Virus record (IMG/VR): IMGVR_UViG_3300047392_000164
Location: 7,199-71,198 of that record
DNA: 64,000 nt
Strand: one strand, 5' to 3'
From: a virus
A program made the position numbers and the translations under genes. Position 1 is the stretch's first letter; each line of letters begins with the position of its first letter. The notes beneath the pieces are model-generated. The model made no database searches and had not been told where the DNA came from. It was given only the letters and a program-made list of their open reading frames with translations. This document shows positions 39,767 through 63,162 of this stretch, one piece after another.

Positions 39767-39924
39767 TGGCATTAAAACATTTTGATTGCGACAGCTGTGG
39801 AGCCCACGGCAAAATCACTTTTAAAGAAGATGATCAATTTCGTAAAGCAGACGTAGCATATTGCCCGTTCTGCGGCGGTGATATCTATGAGGAAGAAGAG
39901 TATGTCGAAGAAGACGATCAGTAA
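39766..39924 (+). CDS. Small zinc-ribbon protein (52 aa)
   Basis: CDSC...CPFC and acidic tail; not in the track. Confidence 0.7.
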   Translation: MALKHFDCDSCGAHGKITFKEDDQFRKADVAYCPFCGGDIYEEEEYVEEDDQ

Positions 39925-40267
39925 GGTAATCATCTACTATGAAGATGGAACGTACGAAGAAGTTAAAGCTGGCTTTCCTCCTGTACAAGATAAACAGAAT
40001 AAAAGCCCTATTACCCCTCATCACGTAGACTTTAGACCTGACTGGCAAAAGGTAAAGGAGTGGCAAGAACCTGCTATTCCTCGTCCAACATGGGTTGCAC
40101 CAACAACTGATCCATCTCTTCCTCCATGGACAATCACGTGTGGTACGGATAATCTTCCTTTTAGTGTAGCTGCAGGTAAGTGGAGTTTTACGTCCACGGA
40201 TAACTTTGTAAATGATAAATATACCATTGCACCAACTGGTAATGGTAATGTGGATATATCAAAATAA
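39902..40267 (+). CDS. Hypothetical protein
   Basis: Overlapping ORF. Confidence 0.55.
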   Translation: MSKKTISKVIIYYEDGTYEEVKAGFPPVQDKQNKSPITPHHVDFRPDWQKVKEWQEPAIPRPTWVAPTTDPSLPPWTITCGTDNLPFSVAAGKWSFTSTDNFVNDKYTIAPTGNGNVDISK

Positions 40268-44112: not shown

Positions 44113-45510
44113 ATGAAACTTTCTAAAAACATCCTCTTGAACACTGATAGTTACAAAACTTCTATGTTCAAACAATATCCTGCCGGCACGACCGGTGTCT
44201 ATTCATACATCGAATCTCGTGGTGGTCGCTATGATTCCACTGTGATGTTCGGTCTTCAAGCGTTCATTAAGGAATACCTCCTTGACCCAATCACTCAAGC
44301 CGACATTGATATTGCAGATGAAATACTTACTGCTCATGGAGAGCCCTTCAACCGAGAAGGATGGGAGTACATTCTACGCGTGCACAACGGCTACCTTCCA
44401 GTCGTTATCCGCGCTGTACCTGAAGGCACTGTGGTTCCTGTCAAAAATGTACTTGCGACAATTGAAAATACGGATCCAGCATGCTTTTGGCTGACAACCT
44501 ATTTAGAAACCGCATTGCTTCGTGCAGTATGGTATCCTACAACTGTAGCAACACAATCTTACACAATCAAGAAAGTTATTCTTGACTACTTGGAGCGAAC
44601 TGGTGACCCTGCAACTATTGATTTTAAGCTTCACGACTTTGGTGCTCGCGGTGTGTCTAGCATGGAGTCTGCTGGGATTGGTGGAGCCGCTCACCTCGTC
44701 AACTTTATGGGTACAGATACTATCACGGGTGTTTTATATGCTCGTGAGTATTACAACGCTGGCATTGCTGGTTTTTCTATCCCAGCAGCCGAACACAGCA
44801 CTATCACTTCTTGGGGCCGCGATAGCGAAGTAAAAGCTTATGAAAATATGCTCACTCAGTTTGCAAAGCCTGGTGCCATTCTTGCTATTGTTTCTGATTC
44901 TTACGATATCTTTAATGCTGTCAGTAATTTGTGGGGCACCGAGCTTCGTGATCGAGTCATTGAATCTGGCGCAACTGTGGTTATTCGTCCTGATAGTGGG
45001 GATCCTGTCGAAATCAACCGTAAGCTGATTGAGATCCTTGGTCAAAAGTTTGGTTTCACTGTGAATGCTAAAGGCTTCAAGGTTCTCAACAATGTACGAC
45101 TCATCCAAGGTGATGGTGTCAACGAATTGAGTATCCGTAGCATCCTCGGTGCCTTCATGGCGATGGGTTGGTCTGCTGATAACATTGCCTTTGGCATGGG
45201 TGGTGCACTGCTCCAACAAGTTGATCGTGATACTCAGAAGTTTGCCATGAAGTGTTCTGCTGCTCAAATCAATGGTGAATGGATTGACGTACAGAAAGAT
45301 CCTGTCACTGATAGCGGTAAGAAATCTAAAGCGGGCCGTGTAACATTGTGGCAGTCAGGTGGAGAGTTTGCTTCTGGTGTAACACCACCTGCTGGTTGGA
45401 CCGATAAAGGTTTCGGCGGATGGGTTGAAGCAATGCAAACTGTCTTCCGTGATGGTCAAATCATCCGTGAATACGACTTCGCTGAAGTTCGTGCTAACGC
45501 AGCAAAGTAA
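44113..45510 (+). CDS. nadV: Nicotinamide phosphoribosyltransferase
   Basis: TDSYK, HDFGARG, AEHS, IRPDSG, IQGDG. Confidence 0.93.
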   Translation: MKLSKNILLNTDSYKTSMFKQYPAGTTGVYSYIESRGGRYDSTVMFGLQAFIKEYLLDPITQADIDIADEILTAHGEPFNREGWEYILRVHNGYLPVVIRAVPEGTVVPVKNVLATIENTDPACFWLTTYLETALLRAVWYPTTVATQSYTIKKVILDYLERTGDPATIDFKLHDFGARGVSSMESAGIGGAAHLVNFMGTDTITGVLYAREYYNAGIAGFSIPAAEHSTITSWGRDSEVKAYENMLTQFAKPGAILAIVSDSYDIFNAVSNLWGTELRDRVIESGATVVIRPDSGDPVEINRKLIEILGQKFGFTVNAKGFKVLNNVRLIQGDGVNELSIRSILGAFMAMGWSADNIAFGMGGALLQQVDRDTQKFAMKCSAAQINGEWIDVQKDPVTDSGKKSKAGRVTLWQSGGEFASGVTPPAGWTDKGFGGWVEAMQTVFRDGQIIREYDFAEVRANAAK

Positions 45511-45529
45511 TACTTCGGTATTCAAAAAG

Positions 45530-45552
45530 AAAGCGCCTTCGGGCGCTTTTTC
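45530..45552 (+). terminator. Intrinsic terminator (cUUCGg loop)
   Basis: AAAGCGCC-TTCG-GGCGCTTTTT. Confidence 0.9.
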
Positions 45553-45554
45553 TG

Positions 45555-45583
45555 TTTACAACAATTCGTACTTTTGATATAAT
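45555..45583 (+). promoter_or_regulatory. Early-type promoter
   Basis: TTTACA-17-TATAAT; ATG 6 nt downstream. Confidence 0.8.
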
Positions 45584-45589
45584 AGCTCT

Positions 45590-45856
45590 ATGGGAACACA
45601 GACAGACTACTTCAATCGCATTGGCTACAAGCATACATACGATCTTGGTGATCGTGTTGAAGGCAAGTGGAATAAGATTCCATTCGTTGGCAGTGTAGGT
45701 AACGATAGACTTGTAAATGAAGATGATGGTCCTGAAATCACAATTCATTTAGATCTACCTATCATGTATAAAGGTACGATTCACCGCATCATCATTGTAA
45801 AACACAAAGACATCAAACGCAGAAAAGAATACGTCTACCCTAAGGACAAGAAATGA
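45590..45856 (+). CDS. Hypothetical protein
   Basis: ORF directly after the promoter. Confidence 0.7.
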   Translation: MGTQTDYFNRIGYKHTYDLGDRVEGKWNKIPFVGSVGNDRLVNEDDGPEITIHLDLPIMYKGTIHRIIIVKHKDIKRRKEYVYPKDKK

Positions 45857-53981: not shown

Positions 53982-54027
53982 GAGCGTAAGAAACGTATAT
54001 ATAATATATCAACACAAAGAGGCAGCA

Positions 54028-54135
54028 ATGCATTTAACTTCTATACTCTCCGCGAAACTAGGTTATGGCTTTAATAGCCAGGCTGACGTACGCCCTACAT
54101 CAATTGAAGGATGGGGTCTAGGGTCTAAGAAGTAA
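54028..54135 (+). CDS. Putative attenuator leader peptide (35 aa)
   Basis: GAGG SD; 31 distinct codons among 35; its 3' end forms the antiterminator strand. Confidence 0.7.
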   Translation: MHLTSILSAKLGYGFNSQADVRPTSIEGWGLGSKK

Positions 54136-54193
54136 GAAGCGCATACGCTCACTCCTCTTAGGCCCTACTGAAAAGTTAGGGCCTTTGTAGTTT
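54119..54193 (+). terminator. Alternative antiterminator/terminator
   Basis: 54119-54130 pairs with 54156-54167 (12 bp), or 54160-54167 pairs with 54177-54184 followed by TTGTAGTTT. Confidence 0.7.
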
Positions 54194-54197
54194 CTAG

Positions 54198-54313
54198 TGT
54201 ACAATAATTCGTAGGTGTGTTACAATACATCTACTGTCTGGTAAAACAGACAAACATCGGTAAGAAAAATATTTTTCCAAACGGTGTACAAATAATCGTA
54301 GTTGATGTATAAT
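54198..54313 (+). promoter_or_regulatory. Tandem promoters of the tRNA array
   Basis: TGTACA-17-TACAAT and TGTACA-17-TATAAT. Confidence 0.8.
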
Positions 54314-54323
54314 ACATCTCTAC

Positions 54324-54351
54324 TGCTGATAAAGCAAATGTTCTTTTAAAA
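54324..54351 (+). promoter_or_regulatory. Small hairpin plus boxA-like antitermination site
   Basis: TGCTGATAAAGCA followed by TGTTCTTTTAAAA. Confidence 0.55.
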
Positions 54352-54367
54352 TTCAACGGTATTTTGT

Positions 54368-54441
54368 TCCCTGATGGTGTAGCGGTAACACAACTGACTT
54401 TGACTCAGTCGTCCCAAGTTCGAACCTTGGTCGGGGTGCCA
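54368..54441 (+). tRNA. tRNA-Gln(UUG)
   Basis: Cloverleaf, loop CTTTGAC, CCA. Confidence 0.9.
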
Positions 54442-54531
54442 TATTGAAATACATTCAAGCAATGACATGGCTGGTAGGCATGTATCTTGCTGGACTAAAG
54501 ACCTACTACGTCTGAGTGTGTTTCAATATGG
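54439..54531 (+). repeat. CCA-pairing long hairpin, copy 1
   Basis: CCATATTGAAATACATTCA / TGAGTGTGTTTCAATATGG. Confidence 0.8.
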
Positions 54532-54537
54532 TTTAAT

Positions 54538-54611
54538 CTGGGTGTAGGATAGTGGTAGTCGACGAGTCTTGGATACTCGAGGTGCAAGTTCGATTCTTGC
54601 CTCCCAGACCA
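54538..54611 (+). tRNA. tRNA-Pro(UGG)
   Basis: Cloverleaf, loop CTTGGAT, CCA. Confidence 0.85.
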
Positions 54612-54622
54612 CAAGTTTTTTT

Positions 54623-54711
54623 GGTGTGTGTTCCCTTCAGCGGTCTGTAAAATCGTTGTCTTAAATTTGAAGGGTGGCAGACAGATGGTTCGATTCCTTC
54701 ACACACCACCA
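54623..54711 (+). ncRNA. D-armless tRNA-Tyr(GUA)-like RNA with pseudoknot
   Basis: Acceptor stem, GTA loop, T arm, ACCA; CCCTTCA pairs with TGAAGGG. Confidence 0.7.
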
Positions 54712-54716
54712 GTTTT

Positions 54717-54791
54717 GGGGACAGCTCAGGGGAGCGGCGGTGCCTTGCAAGTTCCGTGACTAGAAGGGTTCGATACCCTCGGTCTCCACCA
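54717..54791 (+). tRNA. tRNA-Ala(UGC), atypical
   Basis: G3:U70, loop CTTGCAA, short D arm, extended anticodon stem. Confidence 0.7.
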
Positions 54792-54797
54792 AGTTTT

Positions 54798-54896
54798 AGG
54801 ATGGTTGCAGCAAACAATACTTAAGGTTCGATTCCTTATTTTGCCACCAATACTCGGCAGAGTCGCTCAATGGAGAGCATCAACCCATCCTGTTGT
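54798..54896 (+). ncRNA. CAGCA-module RNA enclosing a circularly permuted tRNA
   Basis: T arm and ACCA precede the 5' acceptor strand and D arm, inside an AGGATGG/CCATCCT stem. Confidence 0.75.
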
Positions 54897-54903
54897 ATTT
54901 TAT

Positions 54904-54993
54904 GGTGTGGTCCTATAATGGTATTAGAGCGGATTGCTAATCCGTCGGCTCACGAAAGTGGGCTTCTGAGTTCGAGTCTCAGTCACACCGCCA
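54904..54993 (+). tRNA. tRNA-Ser(GCU)
   Basis: Long variable arm, loop TTGCTAA, G73. Confidence 0.9.
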
Positions 54994-54998
54994 ATTTT

Positions 54999-55098
54999 GG
55001 GAAATGTGCGTAAGGTACGCAAAACAAAAGTATTCTGTAAAGAATATTTGCAGCATCAAATAAAACACTAGTTGGTTCGATTCCAGCATTTCCCGCCA
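54999..55098 (+). ncRNA. tRNA-like RNA with the CAGCA module in place of the anticodon arm
   Basis: Acceptor, D and T arms, GCCA; GTATTCT-GTAA-AGAATAT-TTGCAGCA. Confidence 0.7.
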
Positions 55099-55104
55099 AA
55101 CAAT

Positions 55105-55180
55105 GCGTGCTTAGCTCAGTTGGTAGAGCAGAACGTTGCCAACGTTCAGGTCGCAGGTTCGAACCCTGTAGCCCGCACCA
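55105..55180 (+). tRNA. tRNA-Gly(GCC)
   Basis: Loop TTGCCAA; unusual A73. Confidence 0.85.
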
Positions 55181-55190
55181 CTTTCGGTTC

Positions 55191-55265
55191 GCGCTTATAG
55201 CTTAATGGTAAAGCAGCGAACTCATAATTCGTTGAGTCTAGGTTCAATTCCTAGTGAGCGCACCA
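55191..55265 (+). tRNA. tRNA-Ile2/Met(CAU)
   Basis: Loop CTCATAA. Confidence 0.85.
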
Positions 55266-55299
55266 ATTTATTTTTGAGGTAGAAAATGTAGGAGAAATC

Positions 55300-55860
55300 A
55301 TGTCACACGTCTTAGCTTTAGATGCATCAGGTTTGCCACGGAAGTGGATCAACTATGAAGATGCTATTACATACTTTGCAAAGGGAATGGTCGTCTGGTC
55401 ACTAGGTGAAACAGTCGCAACTTTCCATGGTGGAGTACAAAAGGACGGTGTGATGTCGATACTCGAAACACCTTCTATCATTGCTGTAAAAGGCAAAGGA
55501 TTCAATCTTGAACGCGCTGGTAAGGTTATCTTGACAAACAAGACTTTGTTTGCTCGTGACCGACATGTATGTGCTTATTGCGGTGACAAATTTGCTAACT
55601 CTCATTTGTCTCGTGACCACGTACATCCAGTATCTCGTGGTGGTGAAAACACTTGGATGAACTGTGTAACAGCATGTATCAAGTGCAACACTCAAAAAGG
55701 TGCACGCACTCCAAAGGAATTTGGACATGACCTTTTGTATGTGCCATACGAACCTAACCATTTTGAAAACATGATTCTCCAGAATAGAAACATTCTGACA
55801 GATCAAATGGAGTACTTGATGGGTGGAGTTCCAAAGCACTCACGTATTTTGATGAATTAG
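55300..55860 (+). CDS. HNH endonuclease
   Basis: RD..CAYC, DHVHP.SRGG..W.N...C..CN..K. Confidence 0.9.
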   Translation: MSHVLALDASGLPRKWINYEDAITYFAKGMVVWSLGETVATFHGGVQKDGVMSILETPSIIAVKGKGFNLERAGKVILTNKTLFARDRHVCAYCGDKFANSHLSRDHVHPVSRGGENTWMNCVTACIKCNTQKGARTPKEFGHDLLYVPYEPNHFENMILQNRNILTDQMEYLMGGVPKHSRILMN

Positions 55861-55866
55861 TAACAT

Positions 55867-55943
55867 GTACGGGTGCCCGAGCGGCCTAAGGGGACTGATT
55901 GCAAACCAGTTATTCGTGGGTTCAAATCCCACCCCGTACTCCA
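55867..55943 (+). tRNA. tRNA-Cys(GCA)
   Basis: Loop TTGCAAA, U73. Confidence 0.9.
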
Positions 55944-56130
55944 GATCATAAAATGGCTCAAAAAGCCCTATATGAATCAACAACTTATGTGACTGAAATG
56001 CACCAGAATGCATTCTAGATCACATAATGTATATCCTACCGCTTGAGTGACATACGTTCATTCTGGCAGCTGTAGTACTTTGGTACTACTTCTTAATAGT
56101 TGACAAGAACAGTAAACTATTAAGAAGTGG

Positions 56131-56159
56131 TGTACAATAAATCGAGATCGTGATATAAT
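56131..56159 (+). promoter_or_regulatory. Early-type promoter
   Basis: TGTACA-17-TATAAT. Confidence 0.75.
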
Positions 56160-56190
56160 TACTCTATCAAATCAAGAAGGAGTAGTTCAA

Positions 56191-56382
56191 ATGGCTCGTA
56201 AATCAAAAGACATCGTCACTATCGTAGACGGCGTGAAAGTTACTCAATGTGCTTATCGCGGTCCACGTCGAGGTGAAGGTACTTATGACATCAACAAGTC
56301 GAAGTATACCGTTTGGGCACAGACTGTGTCTAAGTACACACGTGGTACAAATGGTGTTCTTGGAACTGTCGAAAGAATTTAA
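56191..56382 (+). CDS. Small basic hypothetical protein
   Basis: AGGAG SD and its own promoter. Confidence 0.7.
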   Translation: MARKSKDIVTIVDGVKVTQCAYRGPRRGEGTYDINKSKYTVWAQTVSKYTRGTNGVLGTVERI

Positions 56383-56400
56383 AAATAGTTCACTTAATTG

Positions 56401-56471
56401 TGTACAACAAATCGTAGATAGTGTATAATCTCTATCTACTTGCTTATAAAGCAAATACCGTTCTTTAAAAA
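56401..56471 (+). promoter_or_regulatory. Promoter, hairpin and boxA-like site of the second tRNA operon
   Basis: TGTACA-17-TATAAT; TGCTTATAAAGCA; GTTCTTTAAAAA. Confidence 0.7.
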
Positions 56472-56573
56472 TTTATAGGTGAACTTTCTAAGTCTTCGGT
56501 CGAATACGAAGCTTAAGTTCACCGTTTTTAAACTTGTTAGAAGCATGACATGTCGTGAGACATCGCTTCTTAT

Positions 56574-56648
56574 GCTGGGTTCGTCTATCGGTTAGGACAC
56601 ATGCCTTTCACGTATGTAAGACGGGTTCGATTCCCGTACCCAGTACCA
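56574..56648 (+). tRNA. tRNA-Glu(UUC)
   Basis: Loop CTTTCAC. Confidence 0.9.
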
Positions 56649-56710
56649 TTTTTAAACACACTGCCGAACAATCAAATTGCTTAGCAGATGAGTAGTGTGT
56701 TTAAAAATGG
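56646..56710 (+). repeat. CCA-pairing long hairpin, copy 2
   Basis: CCATTTTTAAACACACT / AGTGTGTTTAAAAATGG. Confidence 0.8.
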
Positions 56711-56714
56711 TAAT

Positions 56715-56790
56715 GCTCTGTTAGCTCAATTGGGAGAGCGCGACACTGTCACTGTCGAGGTAAGGGGATCGAAACCCCTACGGGGCGCCA
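56715..56790 (+). tRNA. tRNA-Asp(GUC)
   Basis: Loop CTGTCAC, G73. Confidence 0.9.
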
Positions 56791-56799
56791 AGTTTTTAT

Positions 56800-56875
56800 G
56801 CAGATATAGCTCAGACGGTAGAGCAGTAGCCTGAAAAGTTATGTGTCGCTGGTTCGATTCCAGCTATCTGCACCA
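56800..56875 (+). tRNA. tRNA-Phe(GAA)
   Basis: Loop CTGAAAA. Confidence 0.9.
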
Positions 56876-56882
56876 AGTTTAT

Positions 56883-56957
56883 GCCCTTGTAGCTCAGAGG
56901 AAGAGCAAACGCTTGATAAGCGTTAGGTCGACATTTCGAAATTGTCCAAGGGTACCA
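56883..56957 (+). tRNA. tRNA-Ile(GAU)
   Basis: Loop TTGATAA. Confidence 0.9.
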
Positions 56958-56962
56958 GTTTT

Positions 56963-57020
56963 AGGATTCATTCAGCAAATAAAAATCTTTTTGGAATAAA
57001 GAAAAAGCGAATCCTGTTGT
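56963..57020 (+). ncRNA. CAGCA-module RNA enclosing a lone anticodon stem-loop (GGA)
   Basis: AGGATTC/GAATCCT; TCTTT-TTGGAAT-AAAGA. Confidence 0.7.
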
Positions 57021-57024
57021 TTTT

Positions 57025-57109
57025 GGAGGTGCCGCCGTAATGGTATGGCAGGAGACTGTAAATCTTCCGACTTATGTCACAATTGGTTCGATCCCAATCA
57101 CCTCCACCA
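57025..57109 (+). tRNA. tRNA-Tyr(GUA)
   Basis: Loop CTGTAAA, variable arm. Confidence 0.9.
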
Positions 57110-57117
57110 AGTTTTAT

Positions 57118-57192
57118 GGCCTAATCATATAGTGGTTATTATACCTGCCTGTCTAGTAGGATATCGGGGTTCGATTCCCCGTTAGGTCGCCA
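57118..57192 (+). tRNA. tRNA-Asp(GUC), second copy with U37
   Basis: Loop CTGTCTA, G73. Confidence 0.8.
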
Positions 57193-57198
57193 GTTTAT

Positions 57199-57274
57199 TC
57201 CCTAGTAGCACAGCGGTAGTTGCACTTGACTGTTAATCAAGGTGTCCGTGGTTCGATCCCACGCTGGGGAGCCA
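57199..57274 (+). tRNA. tRNA-Asn(GUU)
   Basis: Loop CTGTTAA. Confidence 0.9.
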
Positions 57275-57360
57275 GAGCAAATAGAGATCTTGTTTTGATG
57301 CATGGTCTCTCAACGGTTGTCAATGACGATGGGTGATAGTTAGGAATTGACAAGAATTAT

Positions 57361-57438
57361 TGTGGTAGAGCAAGCATGGTGTAGGCGCTTCGCTGTTAAC
57401 GAAGAATGAGCTAGGTTCGATCCCTAGTACCACAGCCA
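57361..57438 (+). tRNA. tRNA-Asn(GUU), second copy with atypical D arm
   Basis: Loop CTGTTAA, G73. Confidence 0.8.
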
Positions 57439-57444
57439 AGTTTT

Positions 57445-57510
57445 AGGATAGGTTCAGCAAATAAAAGCATTCAACTTGTAATTGAAAAAAGCTAAAAACT
57501 ATCCTGTTGT
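57445..57510 (+). ncRNA. CAGCA-module RNA enclosing a lone anticodon stem-loop (UGU)
   Basis: AGGATAG/CTATCCT; TTCAA-CTTGTAA-TTGAA. Confidence 0.7.
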
Positions 57511-57514
57511 TTAT

Positions 57515-57591
57515 GGGGATGTGACGCAATTGGTAGACGTACTGGTCTTAGAAACCAGGTCCTGTGGGTTCGAGTCCCACCATCCCCACCA
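57515..57591 (+). tRNA. tRNA-Leu(UAG), short variable arm
   Basis: Loop CTTAGAA. Confidence 0.85.
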
Positions 57592-57594
57592 AGT

Positions 57595-57745
57595 TTTGTA
57601 AGTGTAGATGTTGTGAAAGTAGGAACTCGAAATCCCTGTGAGTTGTCCGTACGACAACCTTGTAGCAACTAATACTACGTACCTCTAACCCTAACGTATA
57701 CTGGGCGAAATGGTTCCGAATGAGAGAGGCGGAACTACTTACAAA
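57595..57745 (+). ncRNA. Unclassified structured RNA
   Basis: Closing stem TTTGTAAGT/ACTTACAAA and internal hairpins. Confidence 0.55.
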
Positions 57746-57798
57746 TTCAATCTCGCCTTGACTTATGGCGTACAATGTGATAAGTAGTAAGTCATTTT

Positions 57799-57873
57799 AG
57801 ATTGTAAACTTTGATGGTGAAGTCCGGCCTCTTAAGCCGAGAGAACCCAGTTCGAGTCTGGGACGATCTACCA
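57799..57873 (+). tRNA. tRNA-Lys(CUU)
   Basis: Loop CTCTTAA. Confidence 0.85.
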
Positions 57874-57978
57874 TATTGAAATACATTTGAATGCTTAGGC
57901 CAAGCAGATGTAGCGGATTACAGCCCGATAGCTTTCGGGTAGGCAGGTTCAATTCCTGCGAAGTGTATTTCAATATGG
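57871..57978 (+). repeat. CCA-pairing long hairpin, copy 3, enclosing tRNA-like arms
   Basis: CCATATTGAAATACATTT / AAGTGTATTTCAATATGG; internal GCAGG-TTCAATT-CCTGC. Confidence 0.8.
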
Positions 57979-58051
57979 GCTGTTAGTGATAATGGGAGCA
58001 CGAGGCCTTTGCACGGCTTAGGTGGGAGTTCGATCCTCCCACGGTCCACCA
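57977..58051 (+). tRNA. tRNA-Ala(UGC)
   Basis: G3:U70, loop TTTGCAC. Confidence 0.85.
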
Positions 58052-58057
58052 AAATTT

Positions 58058-58184
58058 GGAGATGTGATGTAATGGTAGCATAGCATAGCAAAAAGTCAAT
58101 TCTGTAAAGAATTGTTTCCGCATACCTATAGCTCTAACTCTGTAAAAGTTCTTGTCCGCGGTTCGAATCCCGGCATCTCCACCA
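58058..58184 (+). ncRNA. tRNA-Tyr(GUA)-like RNA with an inserted CAGCA-type module
   Basis: Cloverleaf with an insert of about 50 nt containing CAATTCT-GTAA-AGAATTG-TTTCCGCA. Confidence 0.7.
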
Positions 58185-58362
58185 AGTATACTAAGACAAT
58201 GTTTAGTAGTATGAGTAGACGGAAACCGACCCTTGCGAGACTGCGGGGGCTTCACGAAAGTGACGATGCGAAAGTAAGTCGGTCCAGTAGGGGTATGAAA
58301 AACATTGTTAGCGGTCCAGTTGCCAAAGGACAAAAGTTATAATTGACATAACGCCGTGTATT
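58185..58362 (+). ncRNA. Unclassified structured RNA
   Basis: Nested stems ACAATGTTT/AAACATTGT and ACCGAC/GTCGGT, GAAA tetraloops. Confidence 0.6.
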
Positions 58363-58376
58363 CCTTTAAGAATTTT

Positions 58377-58451
58377 GCGCTCGTAGTATAATGGAGAATA
58401 CTCTAGGCTACGAACTTAGTAATGGTGGTTCGATTCCATCCGGGCGCACCA
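58377..58451 (+). tRNA. tRNA-Arg(ACG)
   Basis: Loop CTACGAA. Confidence 0.9.
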
Positions 58452-58456
58452 ATCAT

Positions 58457-58531
58457 GCCGAATTAGCACAGCGGTAGTGCAATCGCCTTGTAAGCGATAG
58501 GTCGTCTGTTCGAACCAGACATTCGGCACCA
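58457..58531 (+). tRNA. tRNA-Thr(UGU)
   Basis: Loop CTTGTAA. Confidence 0.9.
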
Positions 58532-58534
58532 GAA

Positions 58535-58676
58535 TTAGTCGGAGTAATTAACCGAAAAGTAAGTAGTAGACCTCCATGGCACCGCGGATGGTCTTTGCAG
58601 ATAAGTCCTGCGTCAGGTGTCCGAAAGGGTAGCACTTGAGAAACACTGGGGTAAGAGTCCCAAGTTTGTGCCAGCA
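58535..58676 (+). ncRNA. Unclassified pseudoknotted RNA
   Basis: Loop TGGCAC is complementary to distal GTGCCA; four hairpins. Confidence 0.55.
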
Positions 58677-58682
58677 ATTTAC

Positions 58683-58757
58683 ATCGCATTCGACTTCAGG
58701 TGAGGTCATCACCCTTTCAAGGTGACTAGACGGGATCGTTACCCGTATGCGATACCA
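58683..58757 (+). tRNA. tRNA-Glu(UUC), second copy
   Basis: Loop CTTTCAA, T loop ATCGTTA. Confidence 0.85.
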
Positions 58758-58762
58758 TATAA

Positions 58763-58849
58763 GCCTAGGTGCAGGGAATTGGTAGACCGGCAACGTTGAG
58801 AACGTTGTGACTGAAATATGTGGGAGTTCGAATCTCCCTCTAGGCACCA
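58763..58849 (+). tRNA. tRNA-Leu(GAG)
   Basis: Loop TTGAGAA. Confidence 0.8.
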
Positions 58850-58855
58850 AAATTA

Positions 58856-58928
58856 CGCGGGTAGTGCGGAAACACTCCAGTCTCATAAGCTCGGAGCATC
58901 GGCAGTTCGAATCTGTCACCCGCATCCA
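58856..58928 (+). tRNA. Initiator-like tRNA-Met(CAU), atypical
   Basis: C1:A72 mismatch, loop CTCATAA, reduced D arm, bulged anticodon stem. Confidence 0.65.
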
Positions 58929-58932
58929 ATAT

Positions 58933-59007
58933 GCGTTAGTAGCTAAATGGCATAGCAGGAGCCTCTAAAACTCTGAGCAGTGGGTTCGATTCCCATCTAA
59001 CGCACCA
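58933..59007 (+). tRNA. Amber suppressor tRNA (CUA)
   Basis: Cloverleaf, loop CTCTAAA, ACCA. Confidence 0.85.
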
Positions 59008-59008
59008 T

Positions 59009-59083
59009 GGATGTATAGCACAGCGGTAGTGCATCTCCTTCATACGGAGCAGGTCAGTAGTTCGAATCTACTTACATCCACCA
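59009..59083 (+). tRNA. tRNA-Met(CAU), elongator
   Basis: Loop TTCATAC. Confidence 0.88.
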
Positions 59084-59095
59084 TATATAATTCAT

Positions 59096-59172
59096 CGGAG
59101 TATAGCACAGCCTGGTAGTGCGCTTGCTTTGGGAGCAAGAGGTCGCAGGTTCGATCCCTGCTACTCCGACCA
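59096..59172 (+). tRNA. tRNA-Pro(UGG), second copy
   Basis: Loop TTTGGGA. Confidence 0.9.
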
Positions 59173-59190
59173 TTTTTAACTAAGGACATT

Positions 59191-59457
59191 ATGATTGTTA
59201 CACCATTGAAAAAGAACGTGCTTGTTGCAGAAAACAAGCGTGAAAACACAACTGAAAGCGGTATCGTTATTCAAGGTGCAGAAGGTTTAGGCGAATCAAA
59301 GTCTGGAAAAGTCCTTGCAATTGGATCTGAAGTTACCGATGTTAAAGTTGGTGATACGATCTATTTGATGTGGAACAAAGCAAAGCTTGTTAAGATTGAT
59401 GGCGCACAGCGTGTGATCATTTCTCAAGACGACATCGTAGCAGTCTTAGAAGATTAA
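59191..59457 (+). CDS. GroES-like co-chaperonin
   Basis: PL...VLV, TESGIV, G.VLAIG, VKVGD. Confidence 0.88.
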   Translation: MIVTPLKKNVLVAENKRENTTESGIVIQGAEGLGESKSGKVLAIGSEVTDVKVGDTIYLMWNKAKLVKIDGAQRVIISQDDIVAVLED

Positions 59458-59463
59458 TTGTTT

Positions 59464-59537
59464 GCTCTTTTAGTATAATGGCATTACACTACATTGGTAA
59501 TGTAGAAACACTGGATCGTAACCAGTAAGGAGCACCA
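59464..59537 (+). tRNA. tRNA-Thr(GGU)
   Basis: Loop TTGGTAA. Confidence 0.85.
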
Positions 59538-59546
59538 GGAGTTCAT

Positions 59547-59726
59547 ATGAGTAAAATGAGTGATGGCGGCAAAGGTAGTGGTCGTAGACCCAACGATGTC
59601 GATGATAAAAAGATAGAAGACAATTGGAATAACATCTTTGGTATGTCTCCACTTGAACGTAAGAAACGTGAAGAAGCACTGCAAAAGCTTGCAGAAGCTA
59701 ATAAAGAATTAGGTTTAGAATACTAA
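59547..59726 (+). CDS. Small hypothetical protein (59 aa)
   Basis: GGAG SD; GGKGS.RRP...NW..IF; not in the track. Confidence 0.65.
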   Translation: MSKMSDGGKGSGRRPNDVDDKKIEDNWNNIFGMSPLERKKREEALQKLAEANKELGLEY

Positions 59727-59730
59727 TAAT

Positions 59731-59808
59731 GCGGACATAGCGCAATAGGTAGGAGGCAACAGACTTAAAATCTGTACAGTGCGGGTTCGAATCCCGCTGT
59801 CCGTACCA
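59731..59808 (+). tRNA. tRNA-Leu(UAA), short variable arm
   Basis: Loop CTTAAAA. Confidence 0.85.
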
Positions 59809-59813
59809 AATAT

Positions 59814-59887
59814 ATCTCGGTAGTGTAATGGCAGCATACCAGTCTCCAAAACTGTTGGTCGGGGTTCGAGTCCCTGCCGGGATGCCA
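59814..59887 (+). tRNA. tRNA-Trp(CCA)
   Basis: Loop CTCCAAA, G73. Confidence 0.9.
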
Positions 59888-59964
59888 AGTTGTGTTGCAA
59901 CTAATCAGGGGTGCTTGCGTTCTCGCCCTGTTAAAAACAAAAATATGACGCAGCCAAGTTTAAT

Positions 59965-60056
59965 GGAAAGTAATGCAGCGGGGTTGGTCCTGCGACCAGC
60001 CTTGAAAACTGGGTTCTCCTAACGGGGATGGGGTTCGACTCCTCTGCTTTCCGCCA
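59965..60056 (+). tRNA. tRNA-Ser(UGA), 8/4 fold
   Basis: 8-bp acceptor GGAAAGTA/TGCTTTCC, 4-bp T stem, loop CTTGAAA. Confidence 0.8.
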
Positions 60057-60059
60057 GAT

Positions 60060-60207
60060 TTTGAGATAGACGTAGAGATTGAGTCCCTTGTATTCTAGTG
60101 CCCTATTCTTGAGCATGACACACCAGTAGAATTGTACAAGGTTAGCATAAACTCTCTCATACGAGACAACCCAGCGAGTCCTTAAGAAAGATAGTTGGTC
60201 TCTCAAA
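60060..60207 (+). ncRNA. Unclassified structured RNA
   Basis: TTTGAGA/TCTCAAA closure, CCTTGTA/TACAAGG arm, TTCTTGAG complementary to CTTAAGAA. Confidence 0.55.
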
Positions 60208-60215
60208 CCCTATAT

Positions 60216-60303
60216 AGTGAGTTGGCAGAGTGGCTTAATGCACCACCTTGGAAAGGTGACGATCCGAAAGGGTCCGAGAGTTCGAATCTCTCACTCACTG
60301 CCA
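60216..60303 (+). tRNA. tRNA-Ser(GGA)
   Basis: Loop TTGGAAA, long variable arm. Confidence 0.9.
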
Positions 60304-60307
60304 TTAT

Positions 60308-60383
60308 GCGGGTATAGCTCAGTTGGTAGAGCACTTCCTTGCCAAGGAAGATGTCGAGAGTTCGAGTCTCTTTGCCCGCTCCA
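60308..60383 (+). tRNA. tRNA-Gly(GCC), second copy
   Basis: Loop TTGCCAA, U73. Confidence 0.9.
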
Positions 60384-60397
60384 TTTTAGGATACATT

Positions 60398-60544
60398 ATG
60401 AATGAATATGGAGTACCTTTACATGCATGCAACGGTCATCGTCATGATGAACATTATTGGGCGTGGATGAAGTGGGTTATAGAAAATTGTATATGTTTAG
60501 GCTCAGATGGCGAAAAAGTATTTTACAAAAAGCCTATACATTAA
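60398..60544 (+). CDS. Small hypothetical protein (48 aa)
   Basis: AGGA SD after the tRNA. Confidence 0.45.
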   Translation: MNEYGVPLHACNGHRHDEHYWAWMKWVIENCICLGSDGEKVFYKKPIH

Positions 60545-60569
60545 TTCGTCAATGTGGTATAATTAGTCT

Positions 60570-60845
60570 ATGATAAACGAAAAAGAACATGAAATCATGT
60601 CGATCACTCAAGAAGAGTGTGCAGAGGTCATTCAAGCTATAAGCAAGATTAACCGATTTGGTTTTGATGGTAGACATCCTGAAAAAACATACAACAATCG
60701 TGAACACCTTGAAGAGGAAGTTGGCGATGTATTAGCAATGATTGATTTGTTGCTAGAAAACGACATTGTGTCTTGGGCTAATGTGAACAAGGCACGTAGA
60801 AAGAAATTTGAGAAGCTCCAGCAATGGAGCACTGTAATGAATTAA
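60570..60845 (+). CDS. MazG-like pyrophosphatase
   Basis: EECAEVIQA.SK..RFG, LEEEVGDV; ATG 6 nt after TATAAT. Confidence 0.8.
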   Translation: MINEKEHEIMSITQEECAEVIQAISKINRFGFDGRHPEKTYNNREHLEEEVGDVLAMIDLLLENDIVSWANVNKARRKKFEKLQQWSTVMN

Positions 60846-60846
60846 T

Positions 60847-60920
60847 GCGGGATTGGTATAGGGGTTGTGCCCTAGTCTTCCAAACTAGAGAGACCAGTTC
60901 GAGCCTGGTATCCCGCTCCA
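60847..60920 (+). tRNA. tRNA-Gly(UCC)
   Basis: Loop CTTCCAA, U73. Confidence 0.9.
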
Positions 60921-60946
60921 TTTAACTTTAACTAGGAGAACGAAGT

Positions 60947-61078
60947 ATGAAATCGAAACCGATCGCTAAAGAACGTAACTGCTTCGTTCGTTTAGCGTTA
61001 TTCCGAAAAGCAGGGTCGCACCGTAAAAGCAATAAGGCTTTACGTAAAGCGGCAAACCAATCTAATCATTGGGCCTGA
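60947..61078 (+). CDS. Small basic protein (43 aa) whose stop codon lies inside tRNA-Lys
   Basis: AGGAG SD; MKSKPIAKERNCFVRLALFRKAGSHRKSNKALRKAANQSNHWA*; not in the track. Confidence 0.7.
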   Translation: MKSKPIAKERNCFVRLALFRKAGSHRKSNKALRKAANQSNHWA

Positions 61079-61144
61079 AACTTTAAGGTGAAGTAACTGG
61101 CTTTTAACCAGTAAAATTCGGATCGTTACCGAACGGGCCTACCA
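61071..61144 (+). tRNA. tRNA-Lys(UUU)
   Basis: Loop CTTTTAA, T loop ATCGTTA. Confidence 0.88.
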
Positions 61145-61254
61145 TATAAAAACATACTCCAGGTTGGGTTGAATTCGCGGTTCAACTATTTGGGTATCAT
61201 GGACTAGATAATTACTAGCACCGATACTAAGATACGTAGTGTGTTTCTATATGG
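61142..61254 (+). repeat. CCA-pairing long hairpin, copy 4
   Basis: CCATATAAAAACATACT / AGTGTGTTTCTATATGG. Confidence 0.75.
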
Positions 61255-61258
61255 TTAT

Positions 61259-61333
61259 GGTGGCTATGGTGTAATGGAAGCACCCAACTCTGTGAAAGTT
61301 GTAGCACGGGATCGTTACCCGTTAGTCACCCCA
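61259..61333 (+). tRNA. tRNA-His(GUG)
   Basis: G-1:C73, loop CTGTGAA. Confidence 0.9.
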
Positions 61334-61340
61334 ATATTAT

Positions 61341-61415
61341 GCCTCGTTAACTCAGTGGTAGAGTGCTTCCTTTACACGGAAGAGGTCGGCAGTTCGAAAC
61401 TGTCACGAGGTACCA
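61341..61415 (+). tRNA. tRNA-Val(UAC)
   Basis: Loop TTTACAC. Confidence 0.9.
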
Positions 61416-61519
61416 ACTTTAAAAGGAACTTCTATGAAAGCGCTTGCCTAGATTTTACACCCTCCGTAATTTCTTTATTGTCTTTATCATGCAATCAATT
61501 AATCAATAAGGAAATCTAT

Positions 61520-61888
61520 ATGTGTATCGAATTAAAAATCAAATCTAAACATCTCGCCCTTGAGCCTTCTATCATTCGTTCAGAAGAAGAAAAGCTTAAG
61601 AAACAAATGAAGTATCATCGTAGTGATGATAAAGAAAGTTCCTTTACATTGGAACGTAAGTTAAACAACTTAGTCAATCATCGTAAGTGGAATGTTCGTA
61701 ACGAAGCACGAGCAACACACCTTGCACGAGCATATATTGCTGGTAAAGCATATGCTTCTGTTGAGAAATCACGTAACGATGAAGGCTTATTTAGAAATTA
61801 CATTGTTATACGTATTGTAGCAATGGTACAACGATATGGAGATCGTAAGGTCACTAGCGATATGATTCGCGAGTGGGCTAAGGTCTAA
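61520..61888 (+). CDS. Conserved phage hypothetical protein
   Basis: AAGGA SD; HR...VR.EARATHLA.AY..GK.Y..VE. Confidence 0.75.
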   Translation: MCIELKIKSKHLALEPSIIRSEEEKLKKQMKYHRSDDKESSFTLERKLNNLVNHRKWNVRNEARATHLARAYIAGKAYASVEKSRNDEGLFRNYIVIRIVAMVQRYGDRKVTSDMIREWAKV

Positions 61889-61895
61889 GAAATAT

Positions 61896-61999
61896 AGGAT
61901 AGTTTCAGCAAACCCAACGCAACGCCAATGGATGGCAATTTGACTTCTAATCAAACCTTGTGGGTTCAATTCCCACTGCAAAACAACTATCCTGATGAA
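61896..61999 (+). ncRNA. CAGCA-module RNA enclosing an acceptor-less tRNA-Arg(UCU) body
   Basis: AGGATAGTT/AACTATCCT; D arm, TTTGA-CTTCTAA-TCAAA, T arm. Confidence 0.75.
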
Positions 62000-62002
62000 T
62001 AT

Positions 62003-62076
62003 GTCTCATTAGCTCAAAGGTAGAGCACTGCTTTGACATAGCAGATACGGCGGATCGTTACCGTCATGAGATACCA
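62003..62076 (+). tRNA. tRNA-Val(GAC)
   Basis: Loop TTGACAT. Confidence 0.88.
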
Positions 62077-62090
62077 ACTGAAAGCTTATT

Positions 62091-62726
62091 ATGTTAACAT
62101 GTATTCAAGTGCCGCAGTTCATGCATCCACCACAAAAGTTCATTGATAAAGCTCGACAGCTTACTAAAGAACTTGCTGATGGAACATGTGAACAAGAACC
62201 AATCAATTCTGGTCTCTTCAATAAAGGTTATACAGAACGTACTTACATTCGACATGGTGTAGAAACACCAACTCGTGTAGGTAGAATGTATTCTCTTGGA
62301 GATGACTTCATTCAATGGGTGAAGGATTACCTACATCCACATCCAGATGAAACTGGATTGAATGTTCTCAAGCCATTTGACTGTCCTATCATGGGGCCAC
62401 ATATTGACACAAAGCGTAAGTACGTACTGTTCTACCCAATTGCATTAGGTGGCGACAATGTACAAACAGTCTTCTATAAAGAACCCGGTCATACGATTGA
62501 TCGTTCACATTCACTTGGACCAAGTGGTGTAGGTTATTATGTAAGAGACTATAAAGATTTAGAAGCTATTGATCAGATCAACATGCAAATTGGCGTGTGG
62601 TATTTGATGAATCCTAAGGTTATCCATAGCGTAGAGAACGTACATGGTCCGCGATCCATGATTACTGTAAGCTTACCCGACATGGATCAATTTCCTTGGA
62701 AGAATAGGATTCCAGCTCAAGAATAA
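62091..62726 (+). CDS. Putative 2OG-Fe(II) oxygenase-fold protein
   Basis: PHID...IHSV...R. Confidence 0.6.
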   Translation: MLTCIQVPQFMHPPQKFIDKARQLTKELADGTCEQEPINSGLFNKGYTERTYIRHGVETPTRVGRMYSLGDDFIQWVKDYLHPHPDETGLNVLKPFDCPIMGPHIDTKRKYVLFYPIALGGDNVQTVFYKEPGHTIDRSHSLGPSGVGYYVRDYKDLEAIDQINMQIGVWYLMNPKVIHSVENVHGPRSMITVSLPDMDQFPWKNRIPAQE

Positions 62727-62727
62727 T

Positions 62728-62804
62728 GGGGATGTGACGCAATTGGTAGACGTGCTTGATTCAAAATCAAGATTCTGTGGGTTCGAGTCCCACCTTCCCC
62801 ACCA
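62728..62804 (+). tRNA. tRNA-Leu(CAA), short variable arm
   Basis: Loop TTCAAAA; body nearly identical to Leu(UAG) at 57515. Confidence 0.88.
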
Positions 62805-62809
62805 AAAAT

Positions 62810-62832
62810 AAAAGCACCTTCGGGTGCTTTTG
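62810..62832 (+). terminator. Intrinsic terminator ending the tRNA array
   Basis: AAAAGCACC-TTCG-GGTGCTTTT. Confidence 0.9.
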
Positions 62833-62845
62833 TCCGTTCTAGGTG

Positions 62846-62853
62846 TATAAATA
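62846..62853 (+). promoter_or_regulatory. T4-type late promoter
   Basis: TATAAATA after the terminator. Confidence 0.75.
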
Positions 62854-62913
62854 AAATTAGGTAATGCAACGTTACCTAATAAGATCAAATAATAAAAATA
62901 ACAAAGGAATCTT

Positions 62914-63162
62914 ATGAGAAAAACTACTAAGACGATTACGGAAATTACCCATGAACATGGCGTCATTTCCTTCGAACTTCCCGCGTACGAAGCTCTTCTA
63001 GACCTAGCGTCTACAGATGGGTGCCGTGACGAGCACAGAGACATCATTGTTGAAAGAACAAAGACTATCTCTGAGGAAATCGAAGGAGAGCCATTGAAAG
63101 AGGATCACTTACCGGCAATCGTAGCAGGCACTCCTGCAGCTACAGCTCTCGCTGCAGCTTAA
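62914..63162 (+). CDS. Hypothetical protein
   Basis: AGGA SD. Confidence 0.65.
   Translation: MRKTTKTITEITHEHGVISFELPAYEALLDLASTDGCRDEHRDIIVERTKTISEEIEGEPLKEDHLPAIVAGTPAATALAAA

Follow-up and report, generated by a model that had tools for sequence, protein, structure and literature searches.

An unnamed RNA module of T4-like phage tRNA arrays, its covarying helix and its possible role in displaying tRNA parts

We report that the transfer RNA (tRNA) array of a T4-like phage carries six copies of a small RNA module, here called the handle, which almost certainly is real, widespread among phages and previously unnamed. The array lies in a 64-kb stretch (hereafter the window) of the IMG/VR virus record IMGVR_UViG_3300047392_000164 (71 kb; completeness approximately 44%). 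The handle consists of a 7-bp helix (H1), a G after its 3' strand, a 3-nt spacer N-U-W and an unpaired CAGCAA on the 5' side, and an A-rich strand on the 3' side. Its cargo is interchangeable and ranges from bare anticodon stem-loops through tRNA bodies that lack an acceptor and permuted tRNA tops to larger RNAs. Our reading of its role, which is tentative and to which we give somewhat less than an even chance, is that of a phage-specific modular scaffold for the display of tRNA parts that cannot be charged, with decoys for anticodon nucleases as the most plausible purpose.

The copies in the window and the family they belong to

The pattern AGGATNNNTNCAGCAAA has four exact matches in the window, all on the plus strand (open copies 1-4; Table 1), where 0.10 are expected by chance and none of 100 shuffles gave four or more. 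In each match the helix is completed by NNATCCT, the exact complement, with a G directly behind it; the inner pairs are GG/CC, TC/GA, AG/CT and AG/CT in copies 1 to 4, respectively, and H1 is part of the minimum free energy fold (ViennaRNA) of all four. On folding, the cargo of copy 1 proves to be a permuted tRNA top, in which an acceptor stem that closes over ACCA and a 6-nt spacer stands between a T arm (5') and a D arm (3'), that of copy 2 a hairpin UCUUU-UUGGAAU-AAAGA from a subfamily in which UGGAA stands at shifting loop positions, that of copy 3 a lone anticodon stem-loop UUCAA-CUUGUAA-UUGAA (UGU, Thr-like), and that of copy 4 an acceptor-less, Arg-like tRNA body with D, UCU anticodon and T arms on a 3-bp GCA/UGC stub. 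The upstream neighbour of copy 4 is a protein-coding open reading frame, not a tRNA. ARAGORN calls none of the four as tRNA and, as candidates for Rfam tRNA (RF00005), the open copies were rejected: only the interior of copy 4 (61919-61980) passes (31.6 against 29 bits), with its 3-bp stub and an H1 that lacks CCA.

The two closed copies, in which the helix is capped by GUAA, sit inside larger tRNA-like RNAs (Table 1). The first of these RNAs (54999-55098) has a folding z of -3.65 and a weak tRNA-Sec match (20.1 bits), and the arrangement of the second (58058-58184) is near-identical to one in contig L088. A loose search for a hairpin followed by C[AC]GCA gave 21 matches in the window against 4-13 in 20 shuffles, which we judged not significant by itself; support for the closed form comes instead from six other contigs (L097, L112, L006, L018, L042 and L088) with sequence-specific relatives, which read NNAUCCU-GNNA-AGGAUNN-NNN-C(A/C)GCA or close variants. 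Exact matches, complement checks and folding thus confirm the four open and two closed copies, with their compensatory stems and cargoes, that a preliminary description of the window had listed, the reading of copy 2 as a GGA anticodon loop being the least secure of the four cargo assignments.

An IMG/VR scan with TAGGATNNNTNCAGCAAA, a pattern that is silent on the 3' strand, returned at least 120 loci. Among the matches listed, the exact 7-nt complement lies within 330 nt in 80 of 126 unique matches, a G directly follows the 3' strand in all 80 of these, and 11 dinucleotide types occupy positions 6-7. When the first five bases were relaxed, other helix types appeared, i.e. AGGUU/AACCU (35), AGAAU/AUUCU (22), AGAGU/ACUCU (9), GGGAU/AUCCC (7) and also UGGAU/AUCCA, and the cultured phages KVP40, nt-1 and Aeh1 add the variants AGCAAUC, AGUAAUC and GGAAUGA. 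Double-sided changes occur at five of the seven H1 pairs in 99 short copies, which were selected for pairing so that their 100% paired figure is by construction. For an extension of H1 (pairs 8/-8 to 10/-10) the pairing observed equals that expected from composition.

A covariance model of the module (R1) gave 193 matches in 930 kb and a further 55 in 279 kb of fetched loci. The consensus of 225 copies reads UUUU, A(90%) G G/A A/U U N N, N U(88%) W, CAGCAA and a G-poor A/U stretch on the 5' side, then an A-rich stretch, N N A U C C U and G U(83%) U(85%) on the 3' side; G2, U5, CAGCAA and the post-helix G were fixed by filters in this table and are not judgeable from it. Independently of this table, the post-helix G is invariant in the 80 complement-bearing pattern matches among those listed. 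H1 is thus conserved at the outer five pairs (A-U, G-C, G/A-C/U, A/U-U/A and U-A) and the G, with the inner two pairs free, and variants with CAGCCA (in two DLP_6 copies) or CCGCA in place of CAGCAA exist.

Besides the window's own contig, the module is present in at least 71 viral contigs. The six complete or near-complete carriers are T4-like, 168-425 kb in size, and have 3-8 R1 matches each, clustered and on one strand; the T4-type capsid protein Gp23 is encoded by all six. Among 11 cultured T4-like or tRNA-rich phages, four have R1 matches, namely KVP40 (1), nt-1 (1), Aeh1 (2) and Stenotrophomonas phage DLP_6 (5), and the whole genomes of T4, S-CRM01, P-SSM2, HTVC008M, phiM12, Slicko01 and V45v66 gave none. 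According to the feature tables of KVP40 and of one stretch of DLP_6, the KVP40 copy and the DLP_6 copies in that stretch fall in unannotated gaps between tRNAs. BLAST against named phages returned tRNA-sized matches only and missed the module, for which the covariance model was needed. Moreover, no Rfam family reaches its gathering score on module copies, and a full-text literature search, within the coverage of one library, found no publication describing the module. The earlier proposal of an unnamed RNA module with a covarying helix, two topologies and non-chargeable tRNA parts is therefore supported, both in its novelty with respect to Rfam and in its conservation beyond this genome.

In cellular genomes a stricter pattern, applied to one genome per species for 185,579 prokaryote species, gave 80 matches, of which 28 have the helix and approximately eight are family-like; the latter are on short contigs of metagenome-assembled genomes (MAGs) or on a 186-kb MAG contig with matching ends. 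Handles binned in MAGs of several phyla comprise L138, L140, L182, L184, L185 and L193 (short contigs), L171/L190 (the 186-kb contig, binned as Hyphomicrobiales) and L145. The 186-kb contig has the same modules at both ends and behaves like a phage genome, and the MAG-binned contigs are probably mis-binned phage DNA. Since cellular genomes are essentially empty of the family, we consider the module to be a phage feature.

Register, topologies and cargoes

The position of the handle relative to tRNA genes was analysed in 72 sources (71 module loci and the window) comprising 1107 same-strand tRNAs, 1039 of which have an encoded CCA end. The gap between the end of a tRNA and the next tRNA has its mode at 5-8 nt; that between a tRNA end and A1 of a handle is 5-6 nt in 69 of 84 cases; that between the end of H1 and the next tRNA is 9-10 nt in 50 of 79, which equals 4 plus 5-6; and handles follow each other with a mode of 9 nt. 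H1 therefore stands where the 7-bp acceptor stem would stand, and G-U-U-N where N73-CCA would. The placement of the handle as a surrogate acceptor stem without CCA is well supported. From this register we infer release by the tRNA-processing machinery and no aminoacylation: RNase P would cut before A1, trimming would end after the G, and the freed handle RNAs would be stable and could not be charged.

In the open copies the conserved G opens the 4-nt tail G-U-U-(A/G/U), and in eight closed copies it is the first base of the GNNA loop (GUAA three times, GUCA twice, and GGCA, GCCA and GACA once each). Copy 1 and the 54999-55098 RNA are circular permutations of one architecture, in which acceptor/T and D arms are combined with a module that replaces the anticodon arm, and in L097 a 5-bp stem with G-CCA encloses the capped module alone. 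Because the capped copies keep the module without free ends, recognition or tertiary structure is indicated, not end processing alone. The handle would accordingly act as a recognition platform and not only as an end-processing signal, which is the most likely role for a unit that works with or without free ends.

The 225 copies differ in length, with 112 of 50-65 nt, 67 of 90-130 nt and 32 of 130-330 nt. A hairpin with a 7-nt loop is present in 89 of 119 short copies, with U33 in 73 and A37 in 69 of the 89. Among 55 canonical lone loops, the anticodons UUU (17) and UGU (11) are overrepresented when compared with the full tRNAs (32 and 39 of 1107; Fisher 5e-12 and 9e-6, values that overstate independence since the copies share descent), which corresponds to a 6-15-fold enrichment for Lys-UUU and Thr-UGU. 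A full tRNA with the same anticodon is encoded in the same locus for 12 of the 17 UUU loops and eight of the 11 UGU loops, and the lone loops therefore supplement the full tRNAs and do not replace them. UAAU is found at positions 36-39 in all 17 UUU loops, compared with 13 of 32 full-length tRNA-Lys (p 3e-5), where A/U-rich stems favour U39 irrespective of function.

Other cargoes include the sliding-UGGAA hairpins (window copy 2, KVP40 and nt-1), a GCUAA...GUCUAGCGAC hairpin with covariation in DLP_6, Arg(UCU)-type bodies, and permuted tops with or without an internal CCA. A conserved RNA of 200-260 nt was also observed inside the handle, in L108 (6304-6543), L111 (11685-11925), L116 (4579-4786), L123 (5764-5995), L011 (2534-2788, minus strand), L018 (3493-3696, minus strand) and L086 (3323-3580), with the shared blocks GUAGUAGA..GGCCCGCAAGGC, UGGAAAGACA, CAGACACAA and AGCAGAAAAUAAA; Rfam gave no match on this larger cargo in L123 (5560-6100).

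Candidate partners and the setting of the array

RRM, TROVE, RtcB, Rnl1, the CCA-adding enzyme and the GOLLD RNA do not track with the module. TROVE was found neither in the record that contains the window nor in any of 13 records with the module, six of which are at least 91% complete, and RRM_1, the fold of the Dictyostelium binder Rnp1A, in none of 37 records; RtcB was found in one of 13 carriers (one of 18 records searched), as were Rnl1 and the CCA-adding enzyme (one of 13 each). GOLLD RNA occurs in or near module clusters in three of 25 carriers and none of 11 controls (L123 3542-4006; G017 227205-227668, minus strand; G006 215867-216331), and its 5' part in L123 holds UUCAGCAAC at 3575-3583.

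For a crude gene profile, 1090 KVP40 frames were compared with five carriers and four non-carriers. The best candidate, present in four of the five carriers and none of the non-carriers, is an RNase H-like protein of 160-180 aa (PF04308, DUF458/YkuK; PHROG 11311). Its gene is found in six of 10 complete or cultured carriers, none of seven cultured non-carriers and one of 11 control records, a 37% fragment that has no R1 match. It is present in 17 of the 71 module loci, always on the module strand, at most 120 nt from the module in six and at most 2 kb in 15, and several of these genes lie inside or beside arrays (Table 1). Residues D27, E77, D102 and D144 are invariant across nine homologues, and a PDB sequence search with one homologue returned nothing useful. 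Excerpts of Majorek et al. place the DUF458/YkuK family in the RNase H1 clade and describe it as uncharacterised. We regard the PF04308 protein as a lead, that is, as a candidate accessory nuclease and not as a universal partner.

Table 1. Handle copies in the window and in cultured phages, and PF04308 genes inside or beside arrays
Feature	Source	Position	Strand	Details
Open copy 1	window	54798-54895	+	H1 5' strand 54798-54804 AGGAUGG; spacer UUG; CAGCAA 54808-54813; H1 3' strand 54885-54891; G 54892; tail UUG; R1 43.5 bits
Open copy 2	window	56963-57019	+	H1 AGGAUUC/GAAUCCU; spacer AUU; CAGCAA; G 57016; tail UUG; R1 66.8 bits
Open copy 3	window	57445-57509	+	H1 AGGAUAG/CUAUCCU; spacer GUU; CAGCAA; G 57506; R1 74.2 bits
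Open copy 4	window	61896-61997	+	H1 AGGAUAG/CUAUCCU; spacer UUU; CAGCAA; G 61994; tail AUG; R1 31.6 bits
RNA with closed copy	window	54999-55098	+	7-bp acceptor stem, G73-CCA, D arm, T arm; closed module replaces anticodon arm
Closed module of the above	window	55030-55055	+	A-rich strand; GUAUUCU-GUAA-AGAAUAU 55030-55047; UUG; CAGCA 55051-55055
RNA with closed copy	window	58058-58184	+	tRNA-like with CCA end; closed module between D arm and GUA (Tyr-like) anticodon arm
Closed module of the above	window	58097-58122	+	CAAUUCU-GUAA-AGAAUUG 58097-58114; UUU; CCGCA 58118-58122
Handle copy	KVP40	176659-176728	-	
Handle copy	nt-1	96059-96129	-	
Handle copies	Aeh1	111332-111405; 111456-111521	-	
Handle copies	DLP_6	103866; 104580; 104921; 109023; 111655		
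PF04308 gene	KVP40 (NC_005083)	167708-168238	-	
PF04308 gene	G002	86469-86948		
PF04308 gene	G003	45352-45801	-	
PF04308 gene	G005	39496-39945		
PF04308 gene	DLP_6	108098-108535		

The genes of the window are T4-like and include those for a family B DNA polymerase, T4 RNase H, a gp46-like SMC protein, DNA ligase, ribonucleotide reductase and NAMPT, and a T4-type Gp23 capsid gene lies immediately upstream of the window in the same record. The tRNA array spans 54.3-62.8 kb on the plus strand (36 ARAGORN calls and 33 Rfam tRNA matches), with an HNH endonuclease and homologues of Cpn10 and MazG scattered among the tRNAs. One tRNA (58933-59007) has a CUA anticodon, is labelled tRNA-Pyl by ARAGORN and is a candidate amber suppressor. 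Three odd tRNA-like elements without an ARAGORN call (54622-54708, 54717-54791 and 59965-60052) give weak matches of tRNA-Sec/tmRNA type (27.9, 11.9 and 36 bits), and the first has a GUA loop within a long extra helix. A second kind of module, at 54439-54531, 56641-56715, 57871-57978 and approximately 61144-61259, has terminal stems of 16-22 bp (CCAUAUUGAAAUACA... / ...UGUAUUUCAAUAUGG) that begin in the CCA of the upstream tRNA and enclose 30-110 nt, with a T-arm-like hairpin in one; they could represent either a unit for processing of the RNase III type or a further family of RNAs. Finally, a promoter-like repeat block, GTGTACAA(T/C)AAATCGTAG...GTGTATAAT, stands ahead of parts of the array (approximately 54190-54330, 56120-56160 and 56395-56440).

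Competing explanations and comparison with known RNA families

In the scaffold reading, the handle would stabilise non-chargeable baits and present them to host enzymes that read anticodon loops, above all nucleases of the PARIS-AriB/PrrC kind, and its reader may be a host factor or, in some phages, the array-encoded DUF458/YkuK RNase H-like protein. According to excerpts of the Belukhina 2025 preprint, the prime targets of the PARIS nuclease AriB are Lys-UUU and Thr-UGU, cleavage is at U36AAUC/A41 (the stroke marks the cut) and is abolished by a U39 to A change, and contacts with the D loop are also required. The enrichment of the same two anticodons and the retention of UAAU give circumstantial support to the decoy idea of the preliminary description; a bait function of the handle-borne loops is plausible, though less likely than not.

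Apart from the shared descent and the A/U-rich stems noted above, several observations weigh against the scaffold reading. A bare loop lacks the D loop with which AriB, as described in these excerpts, makes its contacts, and no anticodon nuclease has been linked to the hosts of the carriers, so that the match between cargo and AriB is suggestive only. A hairpin with a 7-nt loop is lacking in the remaining 30 of the 119 short copies, many handles carry something other than an anticodon loop, and the cargo RNAs of 200-260 nt need a different explanation than anticodon bait. The short copies are A/U-rich and of unremarkable folding stability (z -0.36 and -1.38). Among contigs of three metatranscriptome runs and one DNA run, aligned over 54300-62900, RNA-library contigs span copy 1 (X12 54520-54927, X13 54757-54994 and X16 54737-54887) and copy 3 (X13 57245-57540) colinearly, which shows colinearity with the DNA only, may reflect DNA carry-over and gives neither ends, strand nor level. 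Moreover, no KVP40 frame in the gene profile was present in all five carriers and absent from all four non-carriers, there is no gene common to all carriers, and PF04308 is missing from G006, G015, G017 and Aeh1.

The alternatives differ in how much of these data they accommodate. The handle might be a general expression and stability chassis, from which any small RNA is excised and made exonuclease-resistant, with cargoes of unrelated function and no specific reader. The position in the tRNA register, the very broad cargo range (50 to approximately 300 nt) and the lack of a universally co-occurring phage gene would suit this, but an end-clamp alone would not require CAGCAA and the G to be invariant, or five outer pairs to stay fixed, in phages that span 168-425 kb, and the closed copies, which have no ends to protect, retain the same sequence; we consider it unlikely. 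A sponge or regulator, whose loops titrate the A37/U34 enzymes of ANN-/UNN-reading tRNAs or bind codons on the ribosome, would explain that 36 of the 55 canonical loops end in U36-A37 and 13 in A36-A37, which we take to be the t6A and i6A classes, respectively; it is very unlikely given that no modification gene is linked and that two anticodons are enriched, not a whole modification class. That the cargoes are tRNA pieces, in arrays with other odd tRNA-like elements, could also mean decayed and functionless tRNA remnants. This is hardly credible: the handle corresponds to no part of a tRNA, its conservation in more than 70 contigs and four cultured phages, with compensatory changes, already contradicts decay, and the choice of cargo is strongly non-random.

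Given the permuted tRNA genes of Cyanidioschyzon and two-piece tmRNA, it has to be asked whether the handle is a ligation or circularisation signal, at which a host or phage RNA ligase joins open copies at H1 into circles or into the closed form. The tail G-U-U-(A/G/U) of open copies indeed mirrors the G-N-N-A loop of closed ones. Copy 1 and its relatives put the 3' half (T arm, acceptor 3' strand and N73-CCA) before the 5' half and hold N73-CCA plus a tRNA-like spacer in a closed acceptor loop, as in permuted genes, and in the excerpts of Chen 2014 (PMC4201824) RNase P cleaves the YrlA RNA of M. smegmatis at a site of this kind, and CCA is added to the RNA. Copy 1 differs from such genes in having neither an anticodon arm nor a tag reading frame, and the joint formed by the handle is a conserved sequence-specific helix: the bulge-helix-bulge that permuted genes of the Cyanidioschyzon type have where the pre-tRNA ends meet, and that splicing endonuclease processes, was not seen at H1, which is an unbroken 7-bp helix in the folds, as judged by eye from the sequence and without a dedicated search. 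With the ligases RtcB and Rnl1 each confined to a single record, the ligation signal suggested by the preliminary description lacks genomic support, and no back-spliced joint at the module was found among the contigs of the RNA and DNA runs, a poor data type for joints. We therefore regard ligation, with permuted cargoes maturing like the Cyanidioschyzon permuted tRNAs or two-piece tmRNA, as improbable.

The suggested link to Y RNAs and Ro60 fared no better. If H1 were a Ro60 (Rsr) binding stem that tethers tRNA-like modules, the handle would resemble YrlA, and copies with permuted cargo do share its layout, in which a tRNA-like domain (T arm, D arm and closed acceptor) is joined to a terminal stem, and give weak YrlA (RF02553) matches (L044 38.9, L013 33.0 and L074 25.9 bits); YrlA RNAs have also been reported in phages, as excerpts of Chen 2014 (PMC4201824) state. 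The cut-off of 69 bits is nevertheless never approached, the 22.8-bit match in the window sits on ordinary tRNAs, none of the six window copies contains the Ro60 motif GNCGAA, the majority of cargoes are something other than tRNA-like domains, and the carriers searched have no TROVE gene, which makes this link highly improbable.

The only non-tRNA family that matches short copies is Dicty_Class_I_RNA (RF01414), with repeated end-to-end alignments to the full model (L116 39.6, window copy 2 33.2, L039 33.1 and L047 28.8 bits), all of them under the gathering score of 41.5 bits, and with E-values of 0.0029 in 9 kb and 0.00046 in 58 kb, over 4227 families; window copies 1, 3 and 4 gave no match. 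Excerpts of Kjellin 2021 (PMC7919456) describe Class I RNAs as approximately 60 nt long, with an AAG start, a CUGU end, a 6-bp terminal stem kept in structure, and near the 5' stem an 11-nt motif (CCUUACAGCAA) with near-invariant T3, C6, C9, A10 and A11; the genes have a DUSE promoter and are reported in Dictyostelia only. The handle shares with this description the outer A-G...C-U-G-U, a terminal stem conserved in structure (6-7 bp in the two sets, with the compensatory changes at five of seven pairs in H1), a variable interior, an A-rich 3' strand and a length, in the short copies, of approximately 60 nt. CAGCAA is identical to its counterpart in the motif as excerpted, and the U lies 2 nt ahead of it in 88% of the 225 copies, in a spacer that is 1 nt shorter. 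The handle differs in that the phage DNA reads (U)AG...CUGU(U) within tRNA arrays and without DUSE context, in its additional cargoes of 90-300 nt, in its capped topology and in the lack of an RRM partner gene.

Given the E-values, a chance likeness would be unlikely, though both sets are A/U-rich, which makes their variable parts look more alike than they otherwise would. It seems likelier that the two converged on a comparable way of binding or folding than that they share descent; that handles and dictyostelid Class I RNAs form one ancient class, through descent, a shared conserved partner or transfer between phage, bacterium and bacterivorous amoeba, is improbable. Both this resemblance and the placement in the tRNA register go beyond the preliminary description. 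The resemblance is not trivial in statistical terms, and it concerns an RNA class that is abundant in eukaryotes and whose mechanism has been sought since 2004. Were the two one class, Class I RNAs would occur outside Dictyostelia as well, phages and their bacteria would offer systems in which to study their biochemical role, and in phages the class would amount to a display platform that can be programmed with tRNA-loop baits.

Should the scaffold reading be correct, large lytic phages would have an RNA chassis that can be reused for bare anticodon loops, headless or permuted tRNAs and larger RNAs. This would add a layer to the tRNA arms race, where RNA baits join nuclease-resistant phage tRNAs and tRNA repair, and would explain part of the inter-tRNA 'junk' that annotation pipelines skip or label as pseudo-tRNA. 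The culturable carriers nt-1 (Vibrio natriegens), KVP40, Aeh1 and DLP_6 make the family directly testable, and an uncharacterised DUF458/YkuK RNase H-like gene embedded in arrays emerges as a by-product.

Among other known RNAs, self-cleaving ribozymes (hammerhead, twister, pistol, hatchet and others) were considered and rejected, as Rfam gave no match at E<=5 in 54000-63000; CUGAUGA occurs in copy 4 only. The T4 RNAs rnaC and rnaD (species 1 and 2) are likewise stable non-tRNA RNAs at the end of a T4-type tRNA cluster, but their sequences, as read, lack the handle. In function, the scaffold reading can be compared with the tRNA-Lys, -Thr and -Asn of T5, which, according to excerpts of the Belukhina 2025 preprint, counter PARIS AriB and escape it via positions 39, 41 and 16. 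The handle loops have the same anticodons (UUU and UGU) in the same setting, the tRNA arrays of large lytic phages. The T5 tRNAs, as far as these excerpts describe them, are full, chargeable and cleavage-escaping, whereas handle RNAs would be non-chargeable loops that retain U39, and for this reason we propose that they would serve as bait and not as replacement.

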